From a virus: a DNA stretch of 64,000 bases. The position numbers and the translations under genes were made by a program. Under the pieces are notes generated by a model. The model worked only from the letters and a program-made list of their open reading frames with translations. It did no database searches and had not been told where the DNA came from. Location: positions 1 to 64,000 of IMG/VR virus record IMGVR_UViG_3300005534_000001, one strand, 5' to 3'. Positions within the stretch are counted from its first letter, which is position 1. The number at the start of each line of letters is the position of its first letter. Shown here in pieces: positions 37,611-63,435 of the stretch.

Positions 37611-37894
37611 TGGACAACCTTCGCACTCCGGAAGTAGTAGCGAAAGAACTTGAGCAACTTGCCGCCGATCTGCGCTCTGGAAAAGTTGAGCGATACCAAG
37701 CGCCAAAGTTGATTTCCAAGCTTGCGAATCGAGTTGAGAGAGCATGAAGCGTGATATCTACGGAAACCCTCGGATGTCTCCCGATGAGTGGATTGCTACT
37801 CGTATCGGCTGGGGCTGGGGAGTCGTGGTTGTCATGGGATTCGTGGCCTTTATCGTTGGCTTATGGGAAACTGCTAAACACTTTTAGAATCAGA

Positions 37895-38266
37895 ATGCTT
37901 CTGGTCAAGACAGAAATCAAGCCAAGCTCAATTCACGGCATTGGTCTTTTCGCGGGCGAGGATATTGCAGCAGGGACGCTGGTGTGGGAATTCCGTGAGC
38001 CATTTGACCGGCACATGCCTGAGTCTGAATTTTATGCCCTCCCTCAGATAGCGCAAGAGCACGTTCGGCAAAGATCGATGCACAGCAAAGATGGCTGGTA
38101 TCTGTTCACTGGCGACAACGACCGATTCATCAATCATTCTGAGTTTGCCAATCTCATTACCAACGAAGAAATAAGCCAAAGCCATGCAGCGAGAAATATC
38201 GCGCGAGGCGAAGAACTTACCGAAGATTATCGGCTCTACAATGAGCCCGAAGGATTAAGTTTATGA
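37895..38266 (+). CDS. SET-domain protein-lysine methyltransferase
   Basis: SSIHGIGLFA.EDI..G, RFINHS...N, ARNI.RGEELT.DY. Confidence 0.9.
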   Translation: MLLVKTEIKPSSIHGIGLFAGEDIAAGTLVWEFREPFDRHMPESEFYALPQIAQEHVRQRSMHSKDGWYLFTGDNDRFINHSEFANLITNEEISQSHAARNIARGEELTEDYRLYNEPEGLSL

Positions 38267-38763
38267 GAAAAAACAGATTCACCAATTTCAAGGCATGGCT
38301 GGTTCTGACGCTGGTCATCGTTGCAATCTCAGGCTGCATCAAGCGGCAAGGTACCGGCAAGCCAGTTACGCCATTCGAGCAGGTGATGGTCTGGAATGAT
38401 GCTCTGGCGCAGACCAATAACAGCGTGGCCAAAGGGATCATAGCGGTAAGCTCTGGTACCTCTCCGCTGGTTATGCCGGACAAAGCAGCCGTGATTCTTC
38501 TCCAGCAGCGTAATATTGCAACAGCCGACCAGCAATTGACGATCATTTTCAAGACAGGGCAGGCCGGCGCAACACTTCAGGCAGCGCAGATCCAGGCGTT
38601 ACTCAGTCAGATCAAGGCGGCCTCACTGGTACTCGTTGATTCCGGAGCCATCGGCGTAAAGAATCCGGCGAGTAAGCAGACGTTCGATGCTGATATCCAA
38701 GCCATCGGAGATTTAATTACCAATATCACGAGCGGGTTGAAGTCGGCGGGGGTGATTCAATGA
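38263..38763 (+). CDS. lipoprotein
   Basis: Basic N-region, hydrophobic H-region, lipobox ISG-C. Confidence 0.75.
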   Translation: MRKNRFTNFKAWLVLTLVIVAISGCIKRQGTGKPVTPFEQVMVWNDALAQTNNSVAKGIIAVSSGTSPLVMPDKAAVILLQQRNIATADQQLTIIFKTGQAGATLQAAQIQALLSQIKAASLVLVDSGAIGVKNPASKQTFDADIQAIGDLITNITSGLKSAGVIQ

Positions 38764-39580: not shown

Positions 39581-40282
39581 ATGACCAAACTCAGGTCAGT
39601 AATCTCAATCGTTCTCAGTCTCTCAGCCATCTTCGCTCTGTGCTCTGTGGGCTATTTCTTCATCCATTTAAGCCGAACAGCAGACGCACTGGCAAATACT
39701 CCAGAGAGCGCAAATAGGACGCTTGAATCCATTTCGGCGACATCGGCCAAGCTCTATGATACGACAACCCAATTAAACGATACGATTGCTCTTGCGAATA
39801 AACGACTCTTCGCGGATGGCGGCCTAATCCAAGCAACTCAGAAATCCATCGTGGCCTACAAATCAGTTGCCGTGGAAGCGGCGATAGGCGAGAAAAAGTA
39901 TTGGAATGAACTGGAAACCGGAACGACTGAGGTTCTGGGCAACGCGAATAAGGCGCTCCAAGGATTGACCACGGCAGAAGTTGGAGTAACGGCAGACTTC
40001 CACGAAAGCACGGCTCATCTGAATGCAGCAGTTGACCGAATCGGCCCAATGGTAGACCAGGGCGGGAAAACGCTCAGAACGGCACAAGGCGCAATTGAAG
40101 CCATAGACGTACCAGCGGTAAACGAAAGCCTCAGAAACGCAAGCCTAGCAACGGGGAATGTGGCTGTAGCAACTGGCGACATCAAAGACGCGGTACATCG
40201 GTGGACGAGGCCGGCATCGGTGCTGAAGTCGCTGGCCATTAATCTGTTGGGATTGGCGGGTAGCGCGAGGGCGTTCTTTTGA
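39581..40282 (+). CDS. membrane-anchored helical protein (i-spanin-like topology)
   Basis: N-terminal TM followed by an Ala/Thr-rich coiled coil. Confidence 0.6.
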   Translation: MTKLRSVISIVLSLSAIFALCSVGYFFIHLSRTADALANTPESANRTLESISATSAKLYDTTTQLNDTIALANKRLFADGGLIQATQKSIVAYKSVAVEAAIGEKKYWNELETGTTEVLGNANKALQGLTTAEVGVTADFHESTAHLNAAVDRIGPMVDQGGKTLRTAQGAIEAIDVPAVNESLRNASLATGNVAVATGDIKDAVHRWTRPASVLKSLAINLLGLAGSARAFF

Positions 40283-40662
40283 GCGACGAACCGCGCAAGA
40301 AAGCCTCTTATGTGGGAGCGCCAGCAGTGTTCGCTCTTGAGCAAGCCTGCAAAGACATCAACGATGCTTTCGGCGGGTACCGTTGCTATTTGGTTGGATC
40401 GGCGCTTGAACGTGGGGATTGGCGGGATGTAGATGTCCGCTACATTATGGAAGACGAAGAGTTCTCCGTGCTCTTTCCGAATGCTGGCCAGCAGTGGGAA
40501 CAAGATCCGCGCTGGCTATTGCTCACGGTTTCTATTTCGGAAAGGCTTTCCAGAATAACTGGGCTGCCGATTGATTTTCAGATTCAGCCGCAAACTCACG
40601 CCAATGAAAGGCATACAGGAATGCGTTCTGCAATCGGATTGAGAATATACAAACCAGAATGA
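40279..40662 (+). CDS. minimal nucleotidyltransferase-like protein
   Basis: YLVGSA.....RDVDVR (GS + DxD) and LPIDFQ. Confidence 0.7.
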   Translation: MSDEPRKKASYVGAPAVFALEQACKDINDAFGGYRCYLVGSALERGDWRDVDVRYIMEDEEFSVLFPNAGQQWEQDPRWLLLTVSISERLSRITGLPIDFQIQPQTHANERHTGMRSAIGLRIYKPE

Positions 40663-40752
40663 AAATCTCCGACTTGCTAAATTCCACAGACAACAGAAAA
40701 GGTTCACGCTTACTAAGTCTTCTCGGTAGATTCTGGGGGAGATACCGAGATT

Positions 40753-40780
40753 GAGGGGCTGGAGACGGCCCCTCGCTTTT
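40753..40780 (+). terminator. probable intrinsic terminator
   Basis: GAGGGGC/GCCCCTC stem followed by GCTTTT. Confidence 0.55.
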
Positions 40781-40802: not shown

Positions 40803-41111
40803 ATGACCACTCAACAACTTTTCATACCGCGTGGCGTATTTGCCACCAAGATCATCATACTGGCGTTCGCAATTCCACTCGCTGCCATACTCGCTATCCT
40901 GGCAATAATACAAACAGGGAGTGTAAACGTGGACCCAGATACTATCGCAACACTGTGGAAGGCATTCTTTGGGCTCAGCGGAGCCGCTAACCTGTTCTGT
41001 GTTTACAAGTTAGCCGTGATCAGCTATCAACATAAACTCATGTGGACCGACTTCGAACGGCGTAAGCGATTGAACGGTGGCCACAGTCAACACTCCAGCG
41101 ATGGGGAATAA
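40803..41111 (+). CDS. small 2-TM membrane protein (holin-like topology)
   Basis: Two hydrophobic segments and a charged C-tail. Confidence 0.55.
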   Translation: MTTQQLFIPRGVFATKIIILAFAIPLAAILAILAIIQTGSVNVDPDTIATLWKAFFGLSGAANLFCVYKLAVISYQHKLMWTDFERRKRLNGGHSQHSSDGE

Positions 41112-41145
41112 AATTTACGAAAACAGAAAAATGGTGAAGGTGTTG

Positions 41146-41176
41146 ATGACAGACTTAAGAAACAGCGATAAAGTCT
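41146..41176 (+). promoter_or_regulatory. putative promoter with overlapping inverted repeat
   Basis: ATGACA-17 nt-TAAAGT; AGACTT-N14-AAGTCT overlaps both boxes. Confidence 0.45.
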
Positions 41177-41197
41177 CCCATAGAGGAGATTTTTTAT

Positions 41198-41323
41198 ATG
41201 AAAAAGCTGTTCTTCATAGTGGCATCATGCGTTTTACTCTTTGCTCTCATTCGTCCAGCGTCCGTTCCGGTGGATGGTCCCTGGCCGCCTCCGCAGTGCT
41301 TCCCGCCACAGGTCTGCAACTGA
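41198..41323 (+). CDS. secreted Pro/Cys-rich peptide precursor (41 aa)
   Basis: Not in ORF track. SD AGAGGAGA; MKKLFFIVASCVLLFALIRPASVPVDGPWPPPQCFPPQVCN. Confidence 0.8.
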   Translation: MKKLFFIVASCVLLFALIRPASVPVDGPWPPPQCFPPQVCN

Positions 41324-41342
41324 CCGACTCAGGAGGTTGGGC

Positions 41343-42011
41343 ATGAATCTCAACCTCCTGAATTATTTTGTCGGGATCTTAGGAACCGTACTGTACATTG
41401 CCGTTTTGGTTCGCGTCATCACCAGCAAGTTTGCTCCTCATTTGTCAATGTTCCGCGTTTATTTGGCCTACTGGTCGCTTGCTTCAATCAGCATGGCATT
41501 CGCGACTTTATGGCCTACCGCGTACCCGCAAATATATTCTGTTCTCGCGGCGCAAATTGGCTCTGTTGGGCAGGGCATTATGGCCTTGGCTCTAATCAAT
41601 ATCACTCTGGCAAAAGTCAAAGACAATTTATTTCCGATTGCGTTCTTTGTGATTACAGCCGCGCTGCTGTTCGTTGTCTTCTTGGATGGAACTCCGAACA
41701 CGGTTTCCTCTTTGCTGAGGCTGGGCTGGCGCTGGGATGCGGTTGCTGGGTTATTACTGGCTTTCACGTTGATGCGTTCTCAGGTGTGGCGCTGGGAATA
41801 CTCCTATTCGGTAATCGCCTATTATCTCTTGGCGCAAATCACTCTTCACATCGGCGCAGTCTACCTCCAGAGCATCTGGAATGACACCCACTTCGGGATC
41901 GTGGCGCTTGCTCATCAATTGTCATGCGTTGGGCCGCTGTGGTGGATGACTCGGAAAGTTTTCAGGATGACAAGGCCAGCAGAATCCAAATCGTATGGAG
42001 TTGGTGCTTAA
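41343..42011 (+). CDS. 7-TM membrane protein, candidate peptide receptor
   Basis: SD AGGAGG; about 7 hydrophobic segments by eye; no soluble output domain. Confidence 0.8.
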   Translation: MNLNLLNYFVGILGTVLYIAVLVRVITSKFAPHLSMFRVYLAYWSLASISMAFATLWPTAYPQIYSVLAAQIGSVGQGIMALALINITLAKVKDNLFPIAFFVITAALLFVVFLDGTPNTVSSLLRLGWRWDAVAGLLLAFTLMRSQVWRWEYSYSVIAYYLLAQITLHIGAVYLQSIWNDTHFGIVALAHQLSCVGPLWWMTRKVFRMTRPAESKSYGVGA

Positions 42012-42014
42012 TTT

Positions 42015-42455
42015 ATGACCGACAAGCACAGTATCGAAGAATTTTCGGATTTTGCCAGCGGTGAGCGTCTACGAGAAGAGTTGCGGAGCGCAGGATTTGC
42101 TAAGGCCGCCGATGCCATGCTGGTTATTGACGCTAAAGGCAAGATCGTAGTGGTCAATGAACAGGTGACAACGTTCTTTTGGTACACCGAAGCCGAATTG
42201 CTGGGCGCGTCCGTTGATATTCTAGTACCTGAGAAATTGCGTGATGCCCATGCTCAGCACCGTACAGATTACGTTGATAATCCGGTTGTGCGTTCAATGG
42301 GTGCTGGCCGGGAATTGAGCGGACGGCGCAAAGACGGCAAGGAGTTCCGGGTTGAAATCAGCATCAATCCCCTGCCTCATAGAAATGAAATGTTTTTCAT
42401 GGCCATCGTGCGAAGGCCTACGGTGAAGATGATTGCATCGGGCGTCCAAGGCTAA
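42015..42455 (+). CDS. stand-alone PAS-domain protein (FixL-like)
   Basis: DAMLVID..G.I..VN...ELLG..V.ILVP...H...Y...MG.GREL.GRRKDG.EF.VEIS. Confidence 0.9.
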   Translation: MTDKHSIEEFSDFASGERLREELRSAGFAKAADAMLVIDAKGKIVVVNEQVTTFFWYTEAELLGASVDILVPEKLRDAHAQHRTDYVDNPVVRSMGAGRELSGRRKDGKEFRVEISINPLPHRNEMFFMAIVRRPTVKMIASGVQG

Positions 42456-42459
42456 GGAC

Positions 42460-42909
42460 ATGGCAACTCGCGATCAGATGATCGCCGATGCGCTCAAGGA
42501 AGTTAAAGACGGTCTCAAGGATTTAGGAAACAAGTTTGACAACAACAAAGACGAGCGTAACCGCGAGATGGCCGAATTTAAACAGCAATATGCCAGAGAA
42601 ATGGCCAAACTGGAAACACAAGTCAAGATTTACGCCGGTATCGCTGGGGCCCTGGGAATGGCAATCGGTACGGCAGTTTCAAAGTTGTTAGTGAGATAGG
42701 GTTTTCATAGGAGCAACAAAATGGCATCAACCATACAGCACGCTTTTCTCATTATCGCTATCATCTGTTGGTTTCTTTCGTCATGTGCAGCAGTGTTCGG
42801 ATATTTCATCCCGGCAACTCCCGCGACCAATCCCTATTACGGGCGCTCGCTGGCAATTCCCTTTATCGCCGTGGGGTTATTTTTCTACGGCATGGCAATC
42901 TATAAGTAG
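42460..42909 (+). CDS. two small membrane proteins (42460-42699 coiled coil + C-terminal TM; 42721-42909 2-TM), holin-like
   Basis: Hydrophobic segments; AGGA/AGGAG RBSs. Confidence 0.6.
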
Positions 42910-42916
42910 CGGCGGC

Positions 42917-43683
42917 ATGTCAGCCGCAGGGATAAAACCCTCTCGTAACTTTAAATCTTCAGAATTTATCCTGGAGATAGACGAAAACGGCGAACACTTC
43001 TGGGTTGGAGATGCGGGCGAGAAATTGACGGAGTTCTTGAGTTTCAAGGCTGAAGATTATTCTCCGAATACCAAGGTAATACTTTACCCGCCATTAACGC
43101 GCACTCGCGGCGATAATGGTGAGACATGAAGAAGTTCAAAAATAACGGGCAAAGAGTAATTGACCCGACAGAGAATGTCATGTCTCTTGTCGCGGCAGCC
43201 CAAAAACGGCAGGATGATCTTCGAGAAGCGGAGAACAGGCGAATTGATGATCTCAGAAAACAGCAAGTACAGTACGAGCACGAATTGCGTACAGTCCGTT
43301 CGCAATATCAGGATGAATTAGCTCAAGCAGAATCTAAGCGCATTGATGCGCTGGCAACGGCGGAATCGCGAAGGCTTGACGCTGTTCTTGCGGGCATGAA
43401 GGCAGATGTGGCACTCGCTAGCGAAAAAGCCAGTGCGACCGCAGCAACCCTCGCCGCTTCCGTAGCTGCTACGGCAACGGCCACGGCATCACAGATTAAT
43501 GAACTGCGGAACACTCTTGATAAGAGGCTTGCCGCAGTGGAGCAAAATCAGTATCAGGCGGGCGGAGCACAGACGCAACGCAGCGAAGGGCAGAAATCGA
43601 ATCAGTGGGCAATCACGACCGCGATTGTCATTGGCATGGCCGTCATTACATTTCTGCTATCTCGTATCTGGCCGGCCCATTAG
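42917..43683 (+). CDS. hypothetical ORF (42917-43129) and coiled-coil protein with C-terminal TM (43126-43683)
   Basis: Heptad pattern; hydrophobic C-terminus. Confidence 0.6.
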
Positions 43684-43697
43684 GGGTATGCGATAAC

Positions 43698-44105
43698 GTG
43701 ATTACAGCATCTCAAATATTGGCCCATCTCTGGGGCGATTACATTTTCCAGTCCGATTGGATGGCCAACGGTAAAACTAAGTGGTGGTTTCCGTGTGCGA
43801 TGCACGTCCTGTTCTATTGTCCAGCATTCTTGCTTTTCCATCCGAGTTGGCAGGCAATGGCGGTCATCGCAGTGACGCACTATTTCATTGACCGCTATCG
43901 GCTGGCCCGCTTCGTCGTGTTCGCAAAGAACTGGTATCTAAAGAAATTCGATTTCTGGAAGCCGATGCCGGTTGGATGGCAGCATAAAGTAACTCCGACT
44001 GGATACCCAGAGTCAACGCCCGATTGGTTGGCGGTCTGGCTCCTGATCATTGCGGACAATATCCTACATCTGACAATTAACGGTCTTGCGCTGAGGTATC
44101 TGTGA
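43698..44105 (+). CDS. DUF3307-family membrane protein
   Basis: AHLWGDYIFQSDWMA..K...HV..Y...HYFIDR...DNILH. Confidence 0.85.
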   Translation: MITASQILAHLWGDYIFQSDWMANGKTKWWFPCAMHVLFYCPAFLLFHPSWQAMAVIAVTHYFIDRYRLARFVVFAKNWYLKKFDFWKPMPVGWQHKVTPTGYPESTPDWLAVWLLIIADNILHLTINGLALRYL

Positions 44106-46000
44106 GCACAACAGCCCCATATCTAATTGATCTTCTGCCAGCCGGCAGCAATGCAACCGTCCTGTTCCATGAAATGGGATGGTTTCAGAAGTCTCCGAAT
44201 GGTCACCGAAATGTCGGCTACAACAGCGACGATCAAGTGACGGTAGATCGGCATCTGGATATGATCTTGGCGTTCGGCAGGGGGATTCCAGCTTCGCGGC
44301 TAGGAGTTATTCTGGACTGGTACGGGCCGGGATTCAAAGACCCATATATTGACAAAGCGGGATTGCTGCTAAAAGCCGGTTGTGAAAAGCGGGGCATGAA
44401 ACTCTCGCTCTGCTTCGATCATGGGATTCCCGATGTTCCAGGAGCAGTCGCATACGCAGCGCAGAATTATTTCGGTTCGCCGGCGTTCTTGCGGCATTCG
44501 AGCGGCAAATTATTTGTCACTGACTTCAACACGTCTGCCGATTGGAATACATTGTCCGCTCAATATGGACTGCATTGCTGCCGATGGACAAACGCGAAGC
44601 CGGGAGGGTACGCATGGATCAAATGTGGCCCTGGCGATAACCCTACGGCAATAGACACCCTTTGCCGTGAAAATCAACTCGTGGAAGTTCCTGGAGTGTG
44701 CGCTGGTTTCGATGACGGAGATCCGGCGAATATGGCGCAATCGAAGTGGGGCGGTCCACGGCGAACGGCTGGGTATGAGAACGGCCAAGCGTGGCTGAGA
44801 ACGTGGAAGAGCGTACCAGTAGAGGCGCAGATCATTCAGGTCATCACATTGAGCGACATTGACGAGAGAACGGGAATAATCGGATGCTTGGGAGAGAGCC
44901 TGCCAGCCGATTGTATTTTGCCGGTCGGCGGAGTAATCCCGAATGTGCTTTCAGGTACCCCGGCGCTCAATCCTCCTAAAATACCGCCCAAGCCTACGCC
45001 AATCCAGCAAGTACCCCCGGCGCCCAAAATCGATTACCAAGCCAACATCCTGAAGGCTGGCGCGTACCTTAGAGCATGCGTTGCCCCAGACGGCGAAATC
45101 CTGATGGCTCTGGACTCGCCAATCGTAAACCCGTATTTCTCGAATCTGGCAGCCCTCGGAATGTGCCATGATCCAGCGTGTATTCCATTTGTCATCAATT
45201 GGATGAAATGGTACATCGCCCATGAGAATTTCCCTGACAAATGGGGTGCGATGGGAACGGTATACGATGCGTCCGAAGTCGGCGGGAAGTCAGTTTCGAG
45301 TAACGGAGCCGATTCAACGGATTCTTACGCAGCAACGTTTCTGAGTGTGGCGTGGGCGCTCTGGAATACTGGCGATGCGACGGCACAGGTTTACGTAAAA
45401 TCTATTATTCCGCAATTGCTTGCAGTCGCTGAAGTAGTGCTTCAAACTCAGCAGCCAGACGGTCTTACATGGGCGCTGCCTAATTATCATCAGAAGTATT
45501 TGATGGACAATTGCGAAGGATACCGAGGTCTTATGGACTTCGCATCTCTGTTGCGCGTGACTGGAGCGCAATATACCGGAGATTATTATGGGCGAAAAGC
45601 ATCCGAAATCCTCAACGGTCTGAAATTCATGTGGCTGGGCAAGTTATGGTCTCCATCCAAAGACGAAGCCGGGACCATCGCACAGCCGAACTTGGCAACT
45701 TGGTATCCCGATGCCGTTTGCCAGTTATTTCCAGCAATGCTTGGCGTTGACCCAAATTCGCAGATCACTTACGCTGCATTCAATAAATCTTGGCCGAAAT
45801 GGTCAACCCTTGAGCACGGATCAGATACTTTCCCTTGGTGCCTCTGTGCTTACGCGGCTGCGATCATGGGCGATACCGTGCGGGCAAACGAGTTTATTAG
45901 CGCAGTCATGGCGAAGTGGGCAAACGGATTTACGTGGCCTTTCTTCTCTGCTGAGGCTGGATGGTTTGCTCTGGCTAATGCTATGATGGGCAAGAAATGA
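44102..46000 (+). CDS. two-domain glycoside-hydrolase-like protein (GH71/99-like barrel, Pro linker, alpha/alpha-toroid domain)
   Basis: GWF...GYNSDD..V..H.DM...GVILDWYG; Pro-rich linker; PYFSNLA, DSTDSYAATFL, DGLTWA, YLMDNCE. Confidence 0.6.
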   Translation: MSTTAPYLIDLLPAGSNATVLFHEMGWFQKSPNGHRNVGYNSDDQVTVDRHLDMILAFGRGIPASRLGVILDWYGPGFKDPYIDKAGLLLKAGCEKRGMKLSLCFDHGIPDVPGAVAYAAQNYFGSPAFLRHSSGKLFVTDFNTSADWNTLSAQYGLHCCRWTNAKPGGYAWIKCGPGDNPTAIDTLCRENQLVEVPGVCAGFDDGDPANMAQSKWGGPRRTAGYENGQAWLRTWKSVPVEAQIIQVITLSDIDERTGIIGCLGESLPADCILPVGGVIPNVLSGTPALNPPKIPPKPTPIQQVPPAPKIDYQANILKAGAYLRACVAPDGEILMALDSPIVNPYFSNLAALGMCHDPACIPFVINWMKWYIAHENFPDKWGAMGTVYDASEVGGKSVSSNGADSTDSYAATFLSVAWALWNTGDATAQVYVKSIIPQLLAVAEVVLQTQQPDGLTWALPNYHQKYLMDNCEGYRGLMDFASLLRVTGAQYTGDYYGRKASEILNGLKFMWLGKLWSPSKDEAGTIAQPNLATWYPDAVCQLFPAMLGVDPNSQITYAAFNKSWPKWSTLEHGSDTFPWCLCAYAAAIMGDTVRANEFISAVMAKWANGFTWPFFSAEAGWFALANAMMGKK

Positions 46001-48744: not shown

Positions 48745-49346
48745 CAGACGATCAATCACCAGAAACTACAAACGAAGAGCAGCCAAAGCCTAAGCGCAGA
48801 CACTTTATCCCCATCAAGGAGTCTCAGCTAGCTAAGAGCACAGCGGCCATTCTCATAGCCGAAGATCTGCTCACCGATGTCAAGATTGCTGAACGTGTCG
48901 GCATCAATCTAAAGACTCTTGGCAACTGGAAGCGCAATGAGCATTTCGCCGCTAAAGTTCTGGAGTACCAGAAAGCTTTTGCCGACCGCGCCCTAAAGCA
49001 TGGATTGGCCAACAAGGAAATCAGACTCCATGAGCTCGACAAGATGTATGCCGACCTGAAGCAGGTTATCCGGGAGCGGGGATCTTCCGAGGAAATGAAG
49101 AAAGTGCCTGGAGGTACTACTGGGCTAATCTGCAAGACCTACAAAGGCATCGGCATTAACCAGCAGGAGATTTTCGAGGTTGACAATCCTACCATCAAGC
49201 AACTGATTGCCATCCATGAGCAATATGCGCAAGAGCTTGGCCAGAAGATTGCCAAGATGGAAGTGGCATTTGGCAGTATTGCTGAGCGCATGGAAGCTGC
49301 TGAAGAGCGACTGAAGAACAGAATCCCGTCAACATGTGTGCAATAG
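48741..49346 (+). CDS. terS: terminase small subunit
   Basis: N-terminal HTH (IAERVGINLKTLGNWK), G..TGL...VD...EQ.AQELGQ; directly before terL. Confidence 0.75.
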   Translation: MTDDQSPETTNEEQPKPKRRHFIPIKESQLAKSTAAILIAEDLLTDVKIAERVGINLKTLGNWKRNEHFAAKVLEYQKAFADRALKHGLANKEIRLHELDKMYADLKQVIRERGSSEEMKKVPGGTTGLICKTYKGIGINQQEIFEVDNPTIKQLIAIHEQYAQELGQKIAKMEVAFGSIAERMEAAEERLKNRIPSTCVQ

Positions 49347-51829
49347 CAGCGCAAGAAGAAATCTATAACCGCCTTCATGATCGGCTGCTGGATTTCAAAT
49401 GGGATCCTTATGGATTTGCGCTTTACGCCTATCCTTGGGGTGAGGGGGAGCTGGCGAATTCTGCTGGTCCTCGTACTTGGCAGCGCGAAATCATGGAGAT
49501 TATTGGAGGACATCTCCAGAATCCCCAGACAAGATTTACGCCGTTACAAGTTGCTGTTTGTAGCGGCCACGGGATCGGCAAGCTACACTGTAAATCATTG
49601 GTAATAAATGATTTAAACGGCACAAAAAGATGGGGCGATATTCGGCCTGGGGATTTAGTTTTTGGTGGCGATGGAAGGCCAGTACGAGTCAAGTCCACTC
49701 ATGAGCAAGGAGTAAAGCCAATATATCGGGTTACATTCGATGATGGCTCATACACGCTTGTTGGCCTGGAACATCTATGGAATGTTCGCGGTCGCCAAGA
49801 AAGACGCAAGAAGTTAGAAGGATGGCGAACACTCACAACCGAACAGATTTTAGAGCTTGGAGTTCTGCGATCAAACGGCGTAGCACAGGCAAAGCAATGG
49901 GAAATACCGATTCAAGGGGCAGCGCAATTTGAGGAAAGAGAAATTGACCTTCATCCGTACTTTTTTGGGATATGGCTTGGCGATGGAACTAAAGGAATCC
50001 CGCAATATACTAAACCGTTCCCTGAATTGGTTGAGCGGCTTAGAAGTTTGGGGATGCAAGTCAATGAGCGCCCAGACGGCAAACACAAGAGAGTTATTGG
50101 GATATCTCATCTTCTCACCGATGCAGTCTTCAGTTGTGGCTCCCACGAAAGATACATCCCAGATTCCTACAAATTCAATACCGTTGAAAATCGGCGTGAA
50201 TTGCTTCGCGGCTTACTTGACACGGATGGCGAAGCAAATAGTTCTGGGAGTATTGGATACTCATCTACAAGTAAACGCCTTTGTGAAGATGTAATTTGGC
50301 TTGTCCGCTCTTTGGGCGGCAAGGCGATGATGCAGGATGCGGTAAAACATGGATGGTACCCAGATGGTGAAGGTGGAAGAGTTGAATGCCGGGATTGCTA
50401 CAGGGCCACAATTAACCTCGACTGGAATCCATTCACAATTGAGCATCGGCGAAAGGCGTGGAAACCATCTGAAGAGCGATATCTTAAACGCTGGATTGAG
50501 AGCATTGAGTATTCCCACGATGAGGACGCAATGTGCATCTCTGTTGATGCTCCAGATGGTCTTTATCTTGCCAATGATTTCATCGTAACGCACAATACGA
50601 GCCTGATTGCAATGTTGACTGCATGGGCCAAGAGCACATGCAGGGATTGCCGAGTCAAGATTACAGCGAACACTGGGCCGCAGTTAGACACCATCACAGT
50701 ACCAGAAGTATCAACTTGGTTCAGGCGGTTGATCAATGCGGATTGGTGGGACGTAAAAGCTACTTCGATCAAGGTAAGGGATACTAATTTTGAAAAGACA
50801 TGGCGAACAGATTTTGTCACTTGGAGCGCTAAAAATCCTTCCGCTTTTGCAGGCTTGCACAATTACGGGAAGCGAATCCTCTATATTTTCGATGAGGCAA
50901 GCGGAATTGATGACATTATCTGGGAAACAACGCAAGGTTCCATGTCGGATGAAAATACCGAGATCATCTGGCTTGCCTTCGGAAACCCGATTGAGCGAGA
51001 TGGGAGATTTGCAGAGTGTTTCGGCAAATTCGCCCATCGCTGGGTAAAGAAAAGAATTGATTCACGTACCGTCGAAGGAACCAACAAAGAGGCAATTCAG
51101 AAAGATGTTGACGATTGGGGCGAAGACTCAGACTTCGTTCGCGCTCGATGGCGCGGAGAGTTTCCACGTGCAGGCTCAAGCCAGTTCATCCCAAGTGATT
51201 CTGTAGCCTTCTGCCGAAAGTACAAAGCAACGGGCTACAGCGGCCTGCCAAAGATCATGGCGGTTGACGTGGCGCGGTTTGGCGATGATCAAACGACCAT
51301 CGGGTATCGGCAGGGAAGAAAGGCAGTCATTCTCGCAAAGTATCGCGGATTGGACACGGTTCAGGTAGCAGAACATGTTATTGAGTTTATGGAATCCGAA
51401 GATCCCGATGCAGTGGTCATCGACGGTGATGGTCTCGGTGCCGGAGTGGTCGATCACATTAAGCACCGTGGATTTGGGAAGAAAGTTTTCGAGTTTCATG
51501 GAGGGGCCACGCCGAACGATGTAGCGAAGTATTTCAATCGCCGTGCTGAGATTTGGGGATTAGGCCGTGACGCTCTTAAGGCAGGAATGGAAATTCCCGA
51601 TGATCCTGAGCTCGACTCTGACTTGACCGGAATAAAGTACGGATTTGGACCGAAGGGCCAGATTCAACTTGAGCGCAAAGAGGATATGAAGAAACGCGGA
51701 TTGAAGAGCCCAGATCTTGGAGATATGCTTATGATGACATTCGCAGTTAGGATCATGGCGAAAAAGAAAGAGACTGCGACTCGGCCAGTTCTTTCGAGTT
51801 ATGCTGGTAATTCTTGGATGGGAGCATGA
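49334..51829 (+). CDS. terL: terminase large subunit, intein-containing
   Basis: SGHGIGK[intein]TS, GLHN...IFDEASGI, FGNP, GEF, DVARFGDD, SPD.GD. Confidence 0.95.
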   Translation: MCAIAAQEEIYNRLHDRLLDFKWDPYGFALYAYPWGEGELANSAGPRTWQREIMEIIGGHLQNPQTRFTPLQVAVCSGHGIGKLHCKSLVINDLNGTKRWGDIRPGDLVFGGDGRPVRVKSTHEQGVKPIYRVTFDDGSYTLVGLEHLWNVRGRQERRKKLEGWRTLTTEQILELGVLRSNGVAQAKQWEIPIQGAAQFEEREIDLHPYFFGIWLGDGTKGIPQYTKPFPELVERLRSLGMQVNERPDGKHKRVIGISHLLTDAVFSCGSHERYIPDSYKFNTVENRRELLRGLLDTDGEANSSGSIGYSSTSKRLCEDVIWLVRSLGGKAMMQDAVKHGWYPDGEGGRVECRDCYRATINLDWNPFTIEHRRKAWKPSEERYLKRWIESIEYSHDEDAMCISVDAPDGLYLANDFIVTHNTSLIAMLTAWAKSTCRDCRVKITANTGPQLDTITVPEVSTWFRRLINADWWDVKATSIKVRDTNFEKTWRTDFVTWSAKNPSAFAGLHNYGKRILYIFDEASGIDDIIWETTQGSMSDENTEIIWLAFGNPIERDGRFAECFGKFAHRWVKKRIDSRTVEGTNKEAIQKDVDDWGEDSDFVRARWRGEFPRAGSSQFIPSDSVAFCRKYKATGYSGLPKIMAVDVARFGDDQTTIGYRQGRKAVILAKYRGLDTVQVAEHVIEFMESEDPDAVVIDGDGLGAGVVDHIKHRGFGKKVFEFHGGATPNDVAKYFNRRAEIWGLGRDALKAGMEIPDDPELDSDLTGIKYGFGPKGQIQLERKEDMKKRGLKSPDLGDMLMMTFAVRIMAKKKETATRPVLSSYAGNSWMGA
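49583..50596 (+). mobile_element. class-3-type intein with LAGLIDADG homing endonuclease (338 aa)
   Basis: Starts Leu, ends VTHN/T; block B EHLW, block F MCISV; FFGIWLGDG and LLRGLLDTDG. Confidence 0.9.
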
Positions 51830-54103: not shown

Positions 54104-56419
54104 ATGCCAGCCCTCGTAGAAGCCACAGGTAGCCCCAAGCAAAAAGAAATAGATGAAGAAGAGCAAGCCAGAATTGATCTGGATGCTTTTCTGACTCTTG
54201 CGCGCAAGCGTTTCTCTATTGCTGAAGAGGCTGAGGCAGAAAACCGCAAAGCTTCTCTTGAAGATCTGGAATTTTTCACTGGAGAGCAGTGGCCGAACGA
54301 TGTCAAGGCCGCAAGAAGCGCCGATGGACGCCCATGCCTCACAATCAATCGGCTCAAGGGCATAAAGAATCAAGTCACGAACGAGCAGAGGCAGCAGAGG
54401 CCAGCAATTCAAGTAAACCCTCGTGGAGACGGAGCCAGCACGGAGACCGCCGAAGTCTATCAAGGGATAATACGAGACATTGAGGTAAACTCTGACGCTG
54501 AAATTGCCTATGACAGTTCATTCGAAGGAATGGTCATCGGTGGATTCTCGTACTTCCGCGTTCTCACTGATTACCTTCCCGGATTAAGTTTTGAGCAGGA
54601 ACTTAAGATCAAGCGGATCAAAAATCCCTTCACGGTTTACTTTGATCCAACCTGCATTGAACCTGATTATTCCGATGCAAACTGGGCCTTCATCATCGAA
54701 GACCTGTCGAAACAGGAATACAAAGCGCAGTTTCCTAAGTCTGAAGCCGCTTCGATGGTGGACTTCAGCAGTATTGGAGATCAATCGCCGGGATGGGCCG
54801 CAAAAGAGACAATTCGCATCGCTGAGTACTTCCATGTTGAGCACGATACCCAGCCGATTGTGCTTCTTGATGATAATCGCGTGATGCTCAAAGAACATGC
54901 GCCAAAAGATGCGGTAATCGTTAAATCCAGAGACATGATAGTTCGCCGCGTGGTCTGGACAAAGATCAATGCCATCGAGAAATTGAAAGAGACTTCTTGG
55001 CTTGGCCAGTGGATACCGATTATCCCGGTACTCGGCGACGATCTGGACGTAAACGGGAAAAGGTACCTTGCTGGATTGATCAGAAACGCAAAAGACGCAC
55101 AAAAGCAATACAACTACATGAACTCGGCGGCCACAGAGCAGATTGCATTGGCCACTAAAGCCCCATATTTGGCAGTGGAAGGCCAGATGGAAGGCTTTGA
55201 GAAAATGTGGGAACAGGCCAATGTCAGGAATTTCTCGTTCCTGTATTACAAGGCTGTTGATGTTCAAGGTAAACCCGCTCCTCCTCCGACACGCAATGCG
55301 GTAGAGCCACCTATTCAGGCAATGGCAGTGATGATCAGGCAGGCTGACAATGACCTGAAAAGTACTACAGGCATTTATGACGCATCTTTGGGGGAAAGAG
55401 GGCCAGACCAGTCAGGGAAGGCGATTCTAGCTCGACAGAAGCAGGGAGACGTTGCCACGCTCAACTTTAGCGACAATCTGGCGCGGTCGATTCGCTTTCT
55501 TGGCAAGCAATTGGTGGATTTGATTCCGAGAGTTTATACCGCAGCGCGAATCCAAAGAATCATCAAGCCAGATCAAACGGTTGATCATGTGGGAATATGG
55601 AATTCCTCAATGCATGATGCCGGTACCGACCCGCGCACATTGCCGGGAATGACCGATCCGTCAATCAAGAGGATCTTTGACATTGGTACAGGGCGCTACG
55701 ATGTAACGGTATCGGTTGGGCCTTCATATCAGTCGAAGAGGCAGGAAGCAGTTTCTTCGCAACTTGCGCTCATTCAGGCTGACCCTGATATTTTGAAGGT
55801 CGCTGGCGATCTGCTAATCAGGAACATGGATTGGCCGGGATCAAAAGAAATTGCTGACAGAGTAAAGAAGATGTTGCCTCCACAATTGCAAGACGATAAT
55901 GGAGATCCAGCAGCGCAACTCCAGAAGGCGCAATCTCAACTTCAGCAACTAAATCAGCAGCATGAATTATTGACTCAGCATCTTACTGCTGCCAATGAAA
56001 CGATCAAATCTAAGCAACAAGAGCAAGAGGCCAAGATGTCCATCGCCAAGGCTCAGATTGATGCCGATTTGATCAAGACGAAACTGGAACTTGAGAATAA
56101 ATTGGCGATTGCCGAAATCACTACCAAGGCCCAAGACCGTCAGCAGAGAGCTCAATTAGAACAGGATATGTGGATGGCGCTGCACAATTCGGCGCACGAT
56201 GCGGCAACTCAAGCGACAGATCAAACGCACGAAGCGGGAATGCAGACTGCCGACCAGCAGCATGAAGCACAACTTCAGCAAGCCCAACAGCAACATGAAG
56301 GCGAACAGGCCACCCAATCCCAAGGTGCAGAAGCAGACCAAGCTACTCAGGCCCAAGCAGCCGCACAACAGCAACAAGAATCGGCGCAAGCCGCAGAACC
56401 TCAAACTCCAGGAGAATAA
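54104..56419 (+). CDS. P22-like portal protein
   Basis: DLEF..GEQW, RPCLTINR, V.N.QRQ.RP, IPIIPV.G, KDAQ..YN, G.YDV.V..GPSY.SKRQE; Gln-rich C-terminal coiled coil. Confidence 0.92.
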   Translation: MPALVEATGSPKQKEIDEEEQARIDLDAFLTLARKRFSIAEEAEAENRKASLEDLEFFTGEQWPNDVKAARSADGRPCLTINRLKGIKNQVTNEQRQQRPAIQVNPRGDGASTETAEVYQGIIRDIEVNSDAEIAYDSSFEGMVIGGFSYFRVLTDYLPGLSFEQELKIKRIKNPFTVYFDPTCIEPDYSDANWAFIIEDLSKQEYKAQFPKSEAASMVDFSSIGDQSPGWAAKETIRIAEYFHVEHDTQPIVLLDDNRVMLKEHAPKDAVIVKSRDMIVRRVVWTKINAIEKLKETSWLGQWIPIIPVLGDDLDVNGKRYLAGLIRNAKDAQKQYNYMNSAATEQIALATKAPYLAVEGQMEGFEKMWEQANVRNFSFLYYKAVDVQGKPAPPPTRNAVEPPIQAMAVMIRQADNDLKSTTGIYDASLGERGPDQSGKAILARQKQGDVATLNFSDNLARSIRFLGKQLVDLIPRVYTAARIQRIIKPDQTVDHVGIWNSSMHDAGTDPRTLPGMTDPSIKRIFDIGTGRYDVTVSVGPSYQSKRQEAVSSQLALIQADPDILKVAGDLLIRNMDWPGSKEIADRVKKMLPPQLQDDNGDPAAQLQKAQSQLQQLNQQHELLTQHLTAANETIKSKQQEQEAKMSIAKAQIDADLIKTKLELENKLAIAEITTKAQDRQQRAQLEQDMWMALHNSAHDAATQATDQTHEAGMQTADQQHEAQLQQAQQQHEGEQATQSQGAEADQATQAQAAAQQQQESAQAAEPQTPGE

Positions 56420-61232: not shown

Positions 61233-62216
61233 ATGAATGAAATTACCATTGTTTCTTCCACGGATACACAAGCCGAAGTAAACGCAGCTCTGGGAATTGA
61301 AGAGCCCAAAGCGACTGAAGTAAAAGAAGAACCCAAACCAGAAGTCAAAGAAACTCCAGCAGTTGAGAAGCCTGCAAAAGAATCCAAGGCTGCCAACGAA
61401 ACAGAAGAAGAAAGAGCAGAAGCCGAGAAAGACAAAGGCAAAGGCGGCTGGCAGCGCCGTATCGACAAACTGACCAGAGAAAAATACGAACTTCTTGAAG
61501 AGAATCGCAATCTTCGCGCTGGCAAGGAACGCTTGGGGGCTGTGCCCGCTGTGGCGACCGAGGAAGAGCCAAAGAAACCAGTAGTCGAAGATGATCCACA
61601 GCCCAAGAAGGAAGCCTTCACCGATTATGAAGAGTACCTTGATGCGCGAGCAGCATGGAGAGCGCGGCAAGAGTTCAAGGCCCTGACAGAGAAACAATCC
61701 AAGGAGTCTGATCAAGCCGCAGAAAATCAGCGCATCCAGGAAACATTCGACAGTTACAACAAGAGATTCGAGCAAGCCAAATCCGACATCCCTGATCTTG
61801 AAGAGAAACTGCTTGAGGCAGCCCAAGCCGGTGTAAATATCCCGCAAGCAGCAATTATGGCCATCTATGAATTGGAGAATGGCCCAGAAGTTTCTTACTA
61901 CATCGCTACCAATTCAGATGTAGCAGAAAAACTCAACAAGATGACCACTCTCCGCGCAGTGGCCGAAATTGGCCGCATTGCCTATACCTTGCAGAATAAT
62001 CCAAAGGAAGAGACCAAAGCGGAACCAAAGCCGAAGGCCGAAGAGCCTAAGCCTGCAAAAGTTGAAGCCCCAAAGACAAAGGCCGCGAGTCCTCCACCTG
62101 AGCCTATAGCTCCAGTGGGCGGCTCCTCAACCAATGCGAGCGTCCCGGATTTCGACAAAATGAGCATGTCTGAATACACGGCATGGTACAAAAAGAATTA
62201 TCCAGGCGTCCGCTAA
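61233..62216 (+). CDS. capsid scaffolding protein
   Basis: Glu/Lys-rich helical protein; QRRIDKLT, ENGPEV.YY, PP.PI.PV, MSM.EY; directly before coat gene. Confidence 0.85.
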   Translation: MNEITIVSSTDTQAEVNAALGIEEPKATEVKEEPKPEVKETPAVEKPAKESKAANETEEERAEAEKDKGKGGWQRRIDKLTREKYELLEENRNLRAGKERLGAVPAVATEEEPKKPVVEDDPQPKKEAFTDYEEYLDARAAWRARQEFKALTEKQSKESDQAAENQRIQETFDSYNKRFEQAKSDIPDLEEKLLEAAQAGVNIPQAAIMAIYELENGPEVSYYIATNSDVAEKLNKMTTLRAVAEIGRIAYTLQNNPKEETKAEPKPKAEEPKPAKVEAPKTKAASPPPEPIAPVGGSSTNASVPDFDKMSMSEYTAWYKKNYPGVR

Positions 62217-62232
62217 ATTCAGGAGAATTTAA

Positions 62233-63435
62233 GTGAACACCCTTTTAACTTCCAGTATCATCACCAAAGAAGCCGTACGGGTGCTTGAGAACAATCTTAC
62301 TCTGACCAAGCACATCAACCGCGACTACGATGATCAATTCGCCAAAAAGGGCGCAGTCATCGGCAATACCATCAACGTACGCAAACCGCCCCGTTACATC
62401 GGTACCACTGGATCTGCGCTCTCAATTGAAGATGCGACCGAGACCAGCGTACCGTTGACACTCACCACTCAATTCCACGTGGACATCGCCTTCACCACGG
62501 TCGATTTGACCTTGAGCATCAACGATTTCAGCCGCCAATTCATCAAGCCTGCCATCGCGGCCATTGCCAACAAGGTAGACTTTGATGCCTCGTTGCTCTA
62601 CCAGACGGTTTACAACACCATCGGCACTCCGGGAACTACGCCCAACGCACTGCTGACTTATCTTCAGGCACAGCAGCGCTTGAACGAAGAAGCGGCTCCT
62701 TTGGATGAGCGCAGCCTGTGCATGACTCCTGCCATGAATGCTGCCATCGTGGACTCTCTCAAGGGATTGTTTCAGTCCTCTGAAAAAATCCGCGAACAGT
62801 ACGAAAAGGGCATGATCGGGATGTCCATTGGTCTTGAATGGTACATGGATCAGAACCTGCGCACCCATAAGATTGGGCCTCTTGGCGGTACACCTCTGGT
62901 AAGCGGTGCCGGACAGACAGGTACCTCTTTGCTGACCTCTGGATGGACGGCTGCTGCGGCTTCCCGGCTCAAAAAGGGCGATGTATTCACGATTGCCAAT
63001 GTGAATGCGGTGAACCCTCAGAATCGGCAATCCACTGGCTCACTTCGCCAGTTTGTCGCGACGGCTGATTTCTCTTCGGCTGCGGATGGAACGGGAACCA
63101 TTTCTATCTCGCCCGCTCTGACCGTTGCTGGCCCCTTCCAGACCGTGGATGCACTTCCGGCCAATGCCGCTGCAATCACTGTCTTTGGCGCGGCCAATAC
63201 CCAAACTCCTCAAGGTCTCGTGTTCCATCGGGACGCCTTCACGATGGGCGTTGCCGATCTCATGATGCCCCAGGGAGTCGATATGAACAACAGGGTATCG
63301 GACAAGCAACTTGGATTGAGCCTTCGCCTTGTCCGCGCCTACGACATCAACACGGACCGCCTGCCATGCCGCACAGACATCCTGTACGGTTTCGCGCCGA
63401 TTTACCCGGAACTTTGCTGTAGGATAGCGGGATAG
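62233..63435 (+). CDS. P22-like major capsid protein
   Basis: NTLLT...IT.EA..VLEN.L, R.YD..FA..GA.IG.T.NVR.P, WYMDQN, FHRDAFT, R.DILYG...YPE. Confidence 0.93.
   Translation: MNTLLTSSIITKEAVRVLENNLTLTKHINRDYDDQFAKKGAVIGNTINVRKPPRYIGTTGSALSIEDATETSVPLTLTTQFHVDIAFTTVDLTLSINDFSRQFIKPAIAAIANKVDFDASLLYQTVYNTIGTPGTTPNALLTYLQAQQRLNEEAAPLDERSLCMTPAMNAAIVDSLKGLFQSSEKIREQYEKGMIGMSIGLEWYMDQNLRTHKIGPLGGTPLVSGAGQTGTSLLTSGWTAAAASRLKKGDVFTIANVNAVNPQNRQSTGSLRQFVATADFSSAADGTGTISISPALTVAGPFQTVDALPANAAAITVFGAANTQTPQGLVFHRDAFTMGVADLMMPQGVDMNNRVSDKQLGLSLRLVRAYDINTDRLPCRTDILYGFAPIYPELCCRIAG

Follow-up and report, generated by a model that had tools for sequence, protein, structure and literature searches.

A perfect 13-bp hairpin joins two tandem reading frames in the genome of a tailed soil phage, a 41-codon open reading frame (ORF) with a signal-peptide-like N-terminus and the gene for a 222-residue protein with seven predicted transmembrane helices, and encloses the ribosome-binding site and the start codon of the latter. 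The locus lies in positions 1 to 64,000 (the window) of IMG/VR virus record IMGVR_UViG_3300005534_000001, a complete record of 92,527 bp with direct terminal repeats from a soil metagenome, of which the window is the first 64 kb. The arrangement suggests that the small ORF is translationally coupled to the membrane-protein gene, and the favoured though tentative reading of the unit, to which a little less than an even chance is assigned, is that two accessory membrane genes of the phage are translationally coupled and that the haem-PAS gene behind them is conserved independently. Among sequencing runs, the probable source run alone, and no RNA run, was found for this DNA; its contig is identical over the 8 kb compared, and there is therefore no variation to analyse.

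An earlier description of the locus made without database searches (the sequence-only reading) took positions 41146–42455 for a peptide-communication module composed of a secreted peptide, a seven-helix receptor and a PAS protein. Its anatomy is confirmed: the three ORFs lie at 41198–41323 (41 codons), 41343–42011 (222 aa) and 42015–42455 (146 aa, PAS), their Shine-Dalgarno (SD) sequences are in place, and the spacings are 19 nt from the peptide ORF to the membrane-protein gene and 3 nt from the latter to the PAS gene. Its interpretation is partly supported, and nothing found shows the first two genes to be a peptide-communication system. The hairpin that would link them is an addition to that description. 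The features on which the argument draws are as follows.

41170–41193, plus strand: modest 9-bp hairpin with the GGAGA of the peptide ORF in its 3′ arm
41198–41323, plus strand: 41-codon ORF, signal-peptide-like at its N-terminus and ending in a WPPP...C..PP..C tail; proposed to be a leader or to encode a small membrane protein
41279–41290, plus strand: WPPP codons (residues 28–31 of the peptide), core of the arrest motif FxxYxIWPPP
41329–41361, plus strand: perfect 13-bp hairpin (arms 41329–41341 and 41349–41361), then AUUAUUUUGU
41343–42011, plus strand: gene for a 222-aa orphan seven-helix membrane protein, with AGGAGG at 41331–41336, in the best coding frame
42015–42455, plus strand: gene for a 146-aa stand-alone protein predicted to be a haem-PAS protein of FixL/DosP type, with His79 aligned to the FixL proximal His

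The hairpin at the membrane-protein start and the proposed coupling

The hairpin begins 5 nt past the stop codon of the small ORF. Its 5′ arm contains the AGGAGG of the membrane-protein gene, its 7-nt loop contains the AUG, and its 3′ arm consists of codons 3–7. The folding energy of −21.5 kcal/mol (z-score −4.7) was equalled in 0 of 200 shuffled sequences and, when all 45-nt windows of the 92.5-kb genome are compared, puts the hairpin at the 0.1 percentile. When 222 regions comprising an SD and a start codon were ranked by structure, this one was third, with its SD 100% paired; the two ranked above it probably belong to short ORFs that are not genes. Constrained folding was used to represent ribosomes on the small ORF. 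With a ribosome at the PPP or PP codons (30, 36, 37) the SD stays fully paired, whereas with the stop codon in the A site the first three SD bases are unpaired and five stem pairs are lost.

In the proposed mechanism the SD locked in the hairpin would not be available to free ribosomes, and only a ribosome reaching the stop codon of the small ORF would begin to melt the stem, after which re-initiation could take place at the AUG downstream. The WPPP and PP codons would slow the translating ribosome, and the output of the membrane-protein gene and of the closely following PAS gene would thus be throttled by translation of the leader, probably through elongation factor P (EF-P) or the supply of proline. 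The 41-aa product would be inserted or exported post-translationally and would most likely be kept in the inner membrane beside the seven-helix protein, with its Pro/Cys tail in the periplasm. Our guess for the function of the pair is an envelope role, for example in superinfection exclusion or lysis control.

Translational coupling through a hairpin that masks an SD is known from the coat and downstream genes of RNA phage MS2 and from many operons. The phage locus resembles this classical form in that an upstream stop codon lies just before a stem hiding the next SD and start codon, and differs from it in the very small size of the upstream ORF, its signal-peptide-like character and its polyproline codons. 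A further parallel is offered by CutF, in which a signal peptide, cysteines, a C-terminal PP motif and an SD-shielding stem-loop form a regulatory design (PMC9973294; bioRxiv 10.1101/2025.02.05.636593); upstream ORFs of the CutF/CruR (DUF2946) kind control cutO and bfrG (PMC9973294; bioRxiv 10.1101/2025.02.05.636593; PMC9426467). The small ORF shares with these a Sec-type N-terminus, cysteines, a C-terminal proline motif and a same-strand downstream SD in a stem-loop, and it passes generic filters applied to such ORFs (PMC9973294): it has fewer than 150 aa, a signal peptide (by inspection), a PP among its 15 C-terminal residues, a close gene on the same strand and a stem-loop over the SD of that gene. 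Unlike CutF, however, the phage peptide has no DUF2946 match (Pfam, E ≤ 0.1), its Pro-stalled ribosome does not touch the hairpin in constrained folding, and the gene downstream encodes an orphan membrane protein and no metal enzyme or transporter. In CutF the metal-binding Cys/His motif lies well upstream of the proline motif, with cysteines 45 residues ahead of it, whereas Cys34 and Cys40 of the phage peptide follow WPPP and its other cysteine lies in the hydrophobic core. CutF has ∼90 mature residues, whereas the sensor part of a 41-aa peptide cannot reach the periplasm with the proline motif in the ribosome tunnel. This tunnel holds ∼30 residues (PMC9973294), and with 41 codons in all the N-terminus would therefore not be engaged by the translocon at that stage.

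The secretion monitors SecM, MifM, VemP and those of RAPP type (PMC7897499; PMC10987492) also combine an N-terminal signal or transmembrane segment, a proline motif towards the C-terminus and an SD-sequestering hairpin. In contrast to them, the phage ORF is far too short for force-sensing and has no RAPP/RAGP motif, its stall site is 39 nt from the stem, which a ribosome stalled there leaves intact in constrained folding, and the downstream gene matches no Sec or YidC machinery. Because of its 41-codon length, the intact hairpin seen with ribosomes at the Pro codons in constrained folding and the lack of a DUF2946 match, the element is read as termination-reinitiation coupling or coupled anti-termination, in which the proline codons would serve as an upstream throttle and not as a force- or ligand-sensing arrest. 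If this is correct, the locus would represent a compact phage leader ORF, signal-peptide-like and polyproline-containing, that controls a membrane protein via an SD-masking hairpin. Such a design has so far been described for bacterial secretion monitors and copper sensors, although the phage form is too short to work in the same way, and the locus would lend itself well to studying how the state of translation controls a membrane gene of a phage.

Translation of the small ORF and fate of its product

The small ORF runs from the ATG at 41198 to the TGA at 41321–41323, within the 231-nt gap 41112–41342, and is preceded by the SD AGAGGAGA (41182–41189), 8 nt 5′ of the ATG. The modest hairpin contains part of this SD; the initiation region ranks only 72nd of the 222 by structure. 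The product begins with an MKK n-region and a 15-residue hydrophobic core followed by RPASVPVDGPWPPPQCFPPQVCN, and ends in the tail DGPWPPPQCFPPQVCN, which has a second PP motif besides WPPP. In E. coli, WPPP is the documented arrest core of the motif FxxYxIWPPP (PMC11669330). By rough estimate, an ATG ORF of 41 codons with a properly spaced GGAG would occur by chance in a 231-nt gap in ∼1% of cases. The MKK and the hydrophobic N-terminus are, on inspection, in keeping with the Sec-type leader proposed previously; inspection by the −3/−1 rule reveals no good signal peptidase I site past the hydrophobic core. The lipobox-like cysteine of the peptide (VASC) is at residue 11, which is too early, and the upstream gene encodes a protein with two transmembrane segments and no type II coiled-coil i-spanin, in both respects unlike an o-spanin of Rz1 type. 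A search of IMG/VR with back-translated WPPPQCFPP yielded one match only, antisense inside a prohead protease gene, which was rejected.

Co-folding of the seven-helix protein with the 41-aa product gave an interface score (ipSAE) of 0.48 (0.50, 0.48 and 0.46 in the three runs), compared with 0.00 in all three controls. The runs have at least 85% of contacts in common, and the predicted local distance difference test (pLDDT) value of the partner is at least 57. Of 78 solved complexes used for calibration, 51 passed the mark applied, as did 2 of 108 mismatched pairs. The co-folding test that had been suggested for the pair is thus passed weakly; the model nudges toward a physical partnership of the peptide and the membrane protein but does not establish it.

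Several observations weigh against a coupled pair of expressed genes. Scored with a three-periodic codon model, for which 90 long ORFs from the same phage served as the training set, the peptide ORF reaches −4.5 bits, compared with +5.3 ± 4.0 for in-frame chunks and −9.5 ± 5.7 for off-frame chunks, an ambiguous value that is as low in 2% of the former and as high in 19% of the latter. Translation of the peptide is therefore argued from its SD and ATG, from the resemblance of the product to a signal peptide and from the geometry of the hairpin. The ORF is recorded by no gene caller, and its product shares no words with any 22–72-aa protein of the collection searched, which leaves no homologue showing purifying selection. 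Passes of the co-folding mark at or below 0.60 comprise only 5 of the 78 solved complexes and all four passing mismatches (of 180), a range in which a pass is more often wrong than right unless a strong prior exists, and the support from this model is correspondingly weak. In the constrained-folding model no more than about 5 of the 13 pairs give way to a ribosome at termination, so that re-initiation is no more than plausible. Finally, the hairpin is followed by a U-rich stretch and scored as terminator-like, and together these could instead be a transcription terminator or processing site.

Part of this evidence would be accommodated if the 41-codon ORF were a purely cis-acting leader, a polyproline- or EF-P-sensitive throttle or attenuator (compare mgtP) that acts by being translated and whose peptide is functionless. 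Such a leader is consistent with the geometry of the hairpin and the presence of WPPP and PP codons, and also with the terminator-like U-rich tail 3′ of the stem, the atypical coding statistics and the lack of peptide homologues in the searches. A pure leader, however, needs no textbook n-region, no 15-residue hydrophobic core and no pair of cysteines in the tail, and the weak co-folding pass with the seven-helix protein (0.48, compared with 0.00 for the best control) speaks against a functionless product; this explanation is considered unlikely. Somewhat less probable again is that the small ORF is untranslated and the gap 41112–41342 is a regulatory untranslated region, in which the hairpin would act as an intrinsic terminator, be a target for RNase or repress the translation of a toxic membrane protein. 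The ambiguous coding score, the absence of the ORF from all gene calls and the terminator-like character of the hairpin are consistent with this. Nevertheless, a strong SD is ideally spaced before the ATG, a signal-peptide-like product is estimated to be improbable by chance, and the stop codon falls 5 nt before the stem, all of which argue for translation.

The seven-helix protein, the PAS protein and the signalling proposal

The coding score of the membrane-protein gene is +11.5 bits in its own frame, compared with −25 to −69 in the other frames. About seven transmembrane helices had been proposed, and seven are predicted, albeit at low confidence (pLDDT 50 in the AlphaFold2 single-sequence model; 0.66 in the ESM Atlas model). 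Inspection by the positive-inside rule suggests an N-out/C-in topology; the loops are all short and the tail has 18 residues. The protein is an orphan. It has no match in Pfam, PHROG, NCBIfam or PADLOC, and profile searches reveal no match to known seven-helix sensor modules (7TMR-DISM, MASE, 5TMR-LYT) or to transporters or enzymes, indicating that the known enzyme or transporter family by which the sequence-only reading could have been undone does not appear. A word-indexed search of 5.8 billion clusters returned only the protein itself, and exhaustive phmmer against 1.84 billion representatives returned itself, a 106-aa product (P0002) and a repetitive junk protein (P0003). Nothing was found in IMG/VR, in GTDB genomes or among INPHARED (GenBank) phages, and comparison of the AlphaFold2 model with the PDB in Foldseek gave nothing at E ≤ 0.001. 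P0002 derives from the same DNA in another catalogue, minus 1 nt (C in ...GCATTCGCG...); the deletion, within 41343–41600, shifts the frame of the membrane-protein gene past residue 53 and may reflect either faulty assembly or a gene knocked out in nature. The in-frame upstream ATG at 41274, the start in the P0002 call, lacks a spaced SD and has a poor coding score, and is unlikely to be the start of the membrane-protein gene.

Look-alikes of the protein in Acidobacteriota had been suggested in the sequence-only reading. In the ESM Atlas its neighbours are unnamed clusters of 216–252 aa that are commonest in Acidobacteriota (feature score 0.94, 206 of 256 shared), and by structure it adjoins an unnamed 218-aa cluster of 442 members (TM-score 0.76), with YhhN and DUF6534 at ∼0.65; these neighbours are a lead and no statement of homology, and a search of named clusters (best 0.80) was uninformative. 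To this extent the suggestion finds an echo, but matches in five and then in 401 Acidobacteriota genomes reach at most 20.6 bits and comprise ZIP transporters, in matches that lack ZIP motifs, and unrelated proteins, all attributed to chance.

The PAS protein, in contrast, belongs to a known family. Its ORF matches Pfam PAS_9 (9e-10) and PAS (1.9e-9), and a profile built from the phage protein and its relatives matches a multi-sensor histidine kinase (10jx, 6.2e-22), FixL haem domains (∼1e-21; 1dp6, 9.4e-22) and DosP (4e-18). His79 is invariant in nine sequences and aligns to the proximal His of FixL, and the arginine of GxGR aligns as well. Judged by these alignments, the protein is a haem-PAS of FixL/DosP type and thus a predicted gas or redox sensor with its own input, unlike FixL and DosP in standing alone at 146 aa with no kinase or cyclic di-GMP output. 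Stand-alone relatives of 134–154 aa and 70–81% identity occur on contigs of 16.8, 20.4, 21.9, 32.8 and 44.3 kb that presumably represent related soil phages; none was found in IMG/VR or among INPHARED (GenBank) phages. Relatives of the phage portal protein (35–45% identity) are present in IMG/VR, and a PAS match is absent from all five of the longest such records. Because one and the same protein collection holds relatives of the PAS protein but none of the seven-helix protein, related phages appear to keep the PAS gene without the other, and the peptide, membrane-protein and PAS genes would form no conserved module. The PAS gene looks like an independent gene, not the relay of a seven-helix receptor. 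Scans of metagenomes and genomes gave only bacterial PAS homologues (40–59% identity), many from Acidobacteriota, in which the haem-PAS domain sits in large soluble sensors with a median length of 657 aa. The possibility that the membrane protein and the PAS protein are a split host sensor was rejected, since at least five transmembrane segments precede the PAS domain in 0 of 73 bacterial haem-PAS ORFs. As a lead, the family of stand-alone haem-PAS proteins in soil phages stands apart from the paired genes and has firmer support.

These results bear on the signalling proposal, according to which the seven-helix protein is a receptor that detects, on the outside, a peptide after its export and release, and the PAS protein or a partner from the host carries the signal on to decisions on lysis, lysogeny or exclusion. 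It agrees with the order of the genes and their close spacing, and the weak co-folding pass and the ESM Atlas lead to an unnamed seven-helix family commonest in Acidobacteriota lend something to it. However, the signalling role has received no direct support: the searches revealed no homologues of the peptide or of the seven-helix protein by which a conserved pair could be recognised, and the latter offers only short loops and a short tail. Nor does the relay fare better, given a predicted haem sensor with its own input, whose gene related phages apparently retain, on long contigs, where the membrane-protein gene is missing. Release of a diffusible peptide is disfavoured by the lack of a canonical cleavage site on inspection and by a host that is likely diderm, from which a periplasmic peptide would not be freely released. 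No integrase, repressor or lysis gene was identified adjoining the unit. Taken together, signalling is regarded as highly improbable. In arbitrium (AimP/AimR/AimX) a secreted pro-peptide is processed to a short mature form, and its cytoplasmic RRNPP/TPR receptor (AimR) is encoded beside the peptide gene. The locus resembles this system in having a small ORF with a secretion signal beside a putative sensor, but differs in that the neighbouring proteins give no TPR or AimR match (Pfam, PHROGs, NCBIfam), the sensor proposed lies in the membrane and has no output domain, a lysogeny module does not adjoin, and the host is probably diderm. A composite version, in which a soil phage probably infecting Acidobacteriota releases a disulfide-looped, Pro-rich peptide read by a phage seven-helix receptor that is itself gated by translation of the peptide gene, is given marginally less credence still; if true, it would mean phage-phage or phage-host peptide signalling through a membrane receptor, unrelated to arbitrium. 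Least probable is that the peptide is a secreted toxin or resembles a bacteriocin and that the polytopic protein confers immunity to it, since, although a small signal-peptide ORF with two cysteines followed by a multi-transmembrane protein generally resembles Sec-dependent bacteriocin/immunity pairs, the peptide tail is short and Pro-rich with no basic residues past R19, the membrane protein matches no CPBP/Abi or other immunity family, and no export or processing genes are present.

Neighbouring genes

The remaining features near the unit are listed below.

40752–40775, plus strand: strong terminator-like hairpin (10-pair stem, 7 GC), then CTTTTATT
40803–41111, plus strand: 102-aa ORF with two transmembrane segments and no family, probably the first gene of the unit
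41146–41174, plus strand: weak sigma-70-like match, ATGACA-17-TAAAGT (9/12), not above chance
42460–42699, plus strand: gene for a 79-aa coiled-coil protein with a C-terminal transmembrane segment

Few 45-nt windows of the genome are as stable as that of the hairpin at 40752–40775, a probable terminator that would mark the upstream boundary of the transcription unit, just 5′ of the two-transmembrane ORF. The unit had also been credited with its own promoter overlapped by an inverted repeat. The repeat is present (41146–41156 and 41171–41181, 82% complementary), whereas the promoter match is not distinguished from chance, with eight such sites in the region compared with 5.0 ± 2.4 in shuffles. 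Holin-like flanking genes and a lysis context were likewise proposed. The former are reduced to one weak PHROG match of the 79-aa protein (phrog_689, E 1.2e-3), the other two flanking ORFs, at 40803–41111 and 42721–42909, encoding two-transmembrane proteins of no family; the latter is not established, and matches to three common endolysin families (PF00959, PF01510 and PF01464) were not found in the whole phage.

The surrounding region from 38 to 46 kb carries a plus-strand series of small ORFs, mostly membrane-associated and without families. Upstream of the unit, a SET-domain protein (37751–38266; Pfam SET, 1.7e-10) is followed by a 166-aa lipobox-bearing ORF (38263–38763), and a 127-aa ORF (40279–40662) with no family match has a GS...D.D motif that recalls small nucleotidyltransferases. 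Downstream, a coiled-coil, tail-anchored ORF (43126–43683) is overlapped at its end by a DUF3307/phrog_6676 membrane protein (43605–44105; 1.7e-38), whose family is filed under moron and host-takeover membrane proteins, and a 632-aa ORF (44102–46000) has no Pfam, PHROG, NCBIfam or PADLOC match and no IMG/VR relative. Farther downstream, tailed-phage genes encode the large terminase (49334–51829), the portal protein (54104–56419; phrog_156, 1e-131), and the scaffold and major head proteins (61233–63435). The terminase carries an insert of ∼260 residues (421–681) that matches phrog_5902, consistent with an intein or homing element.

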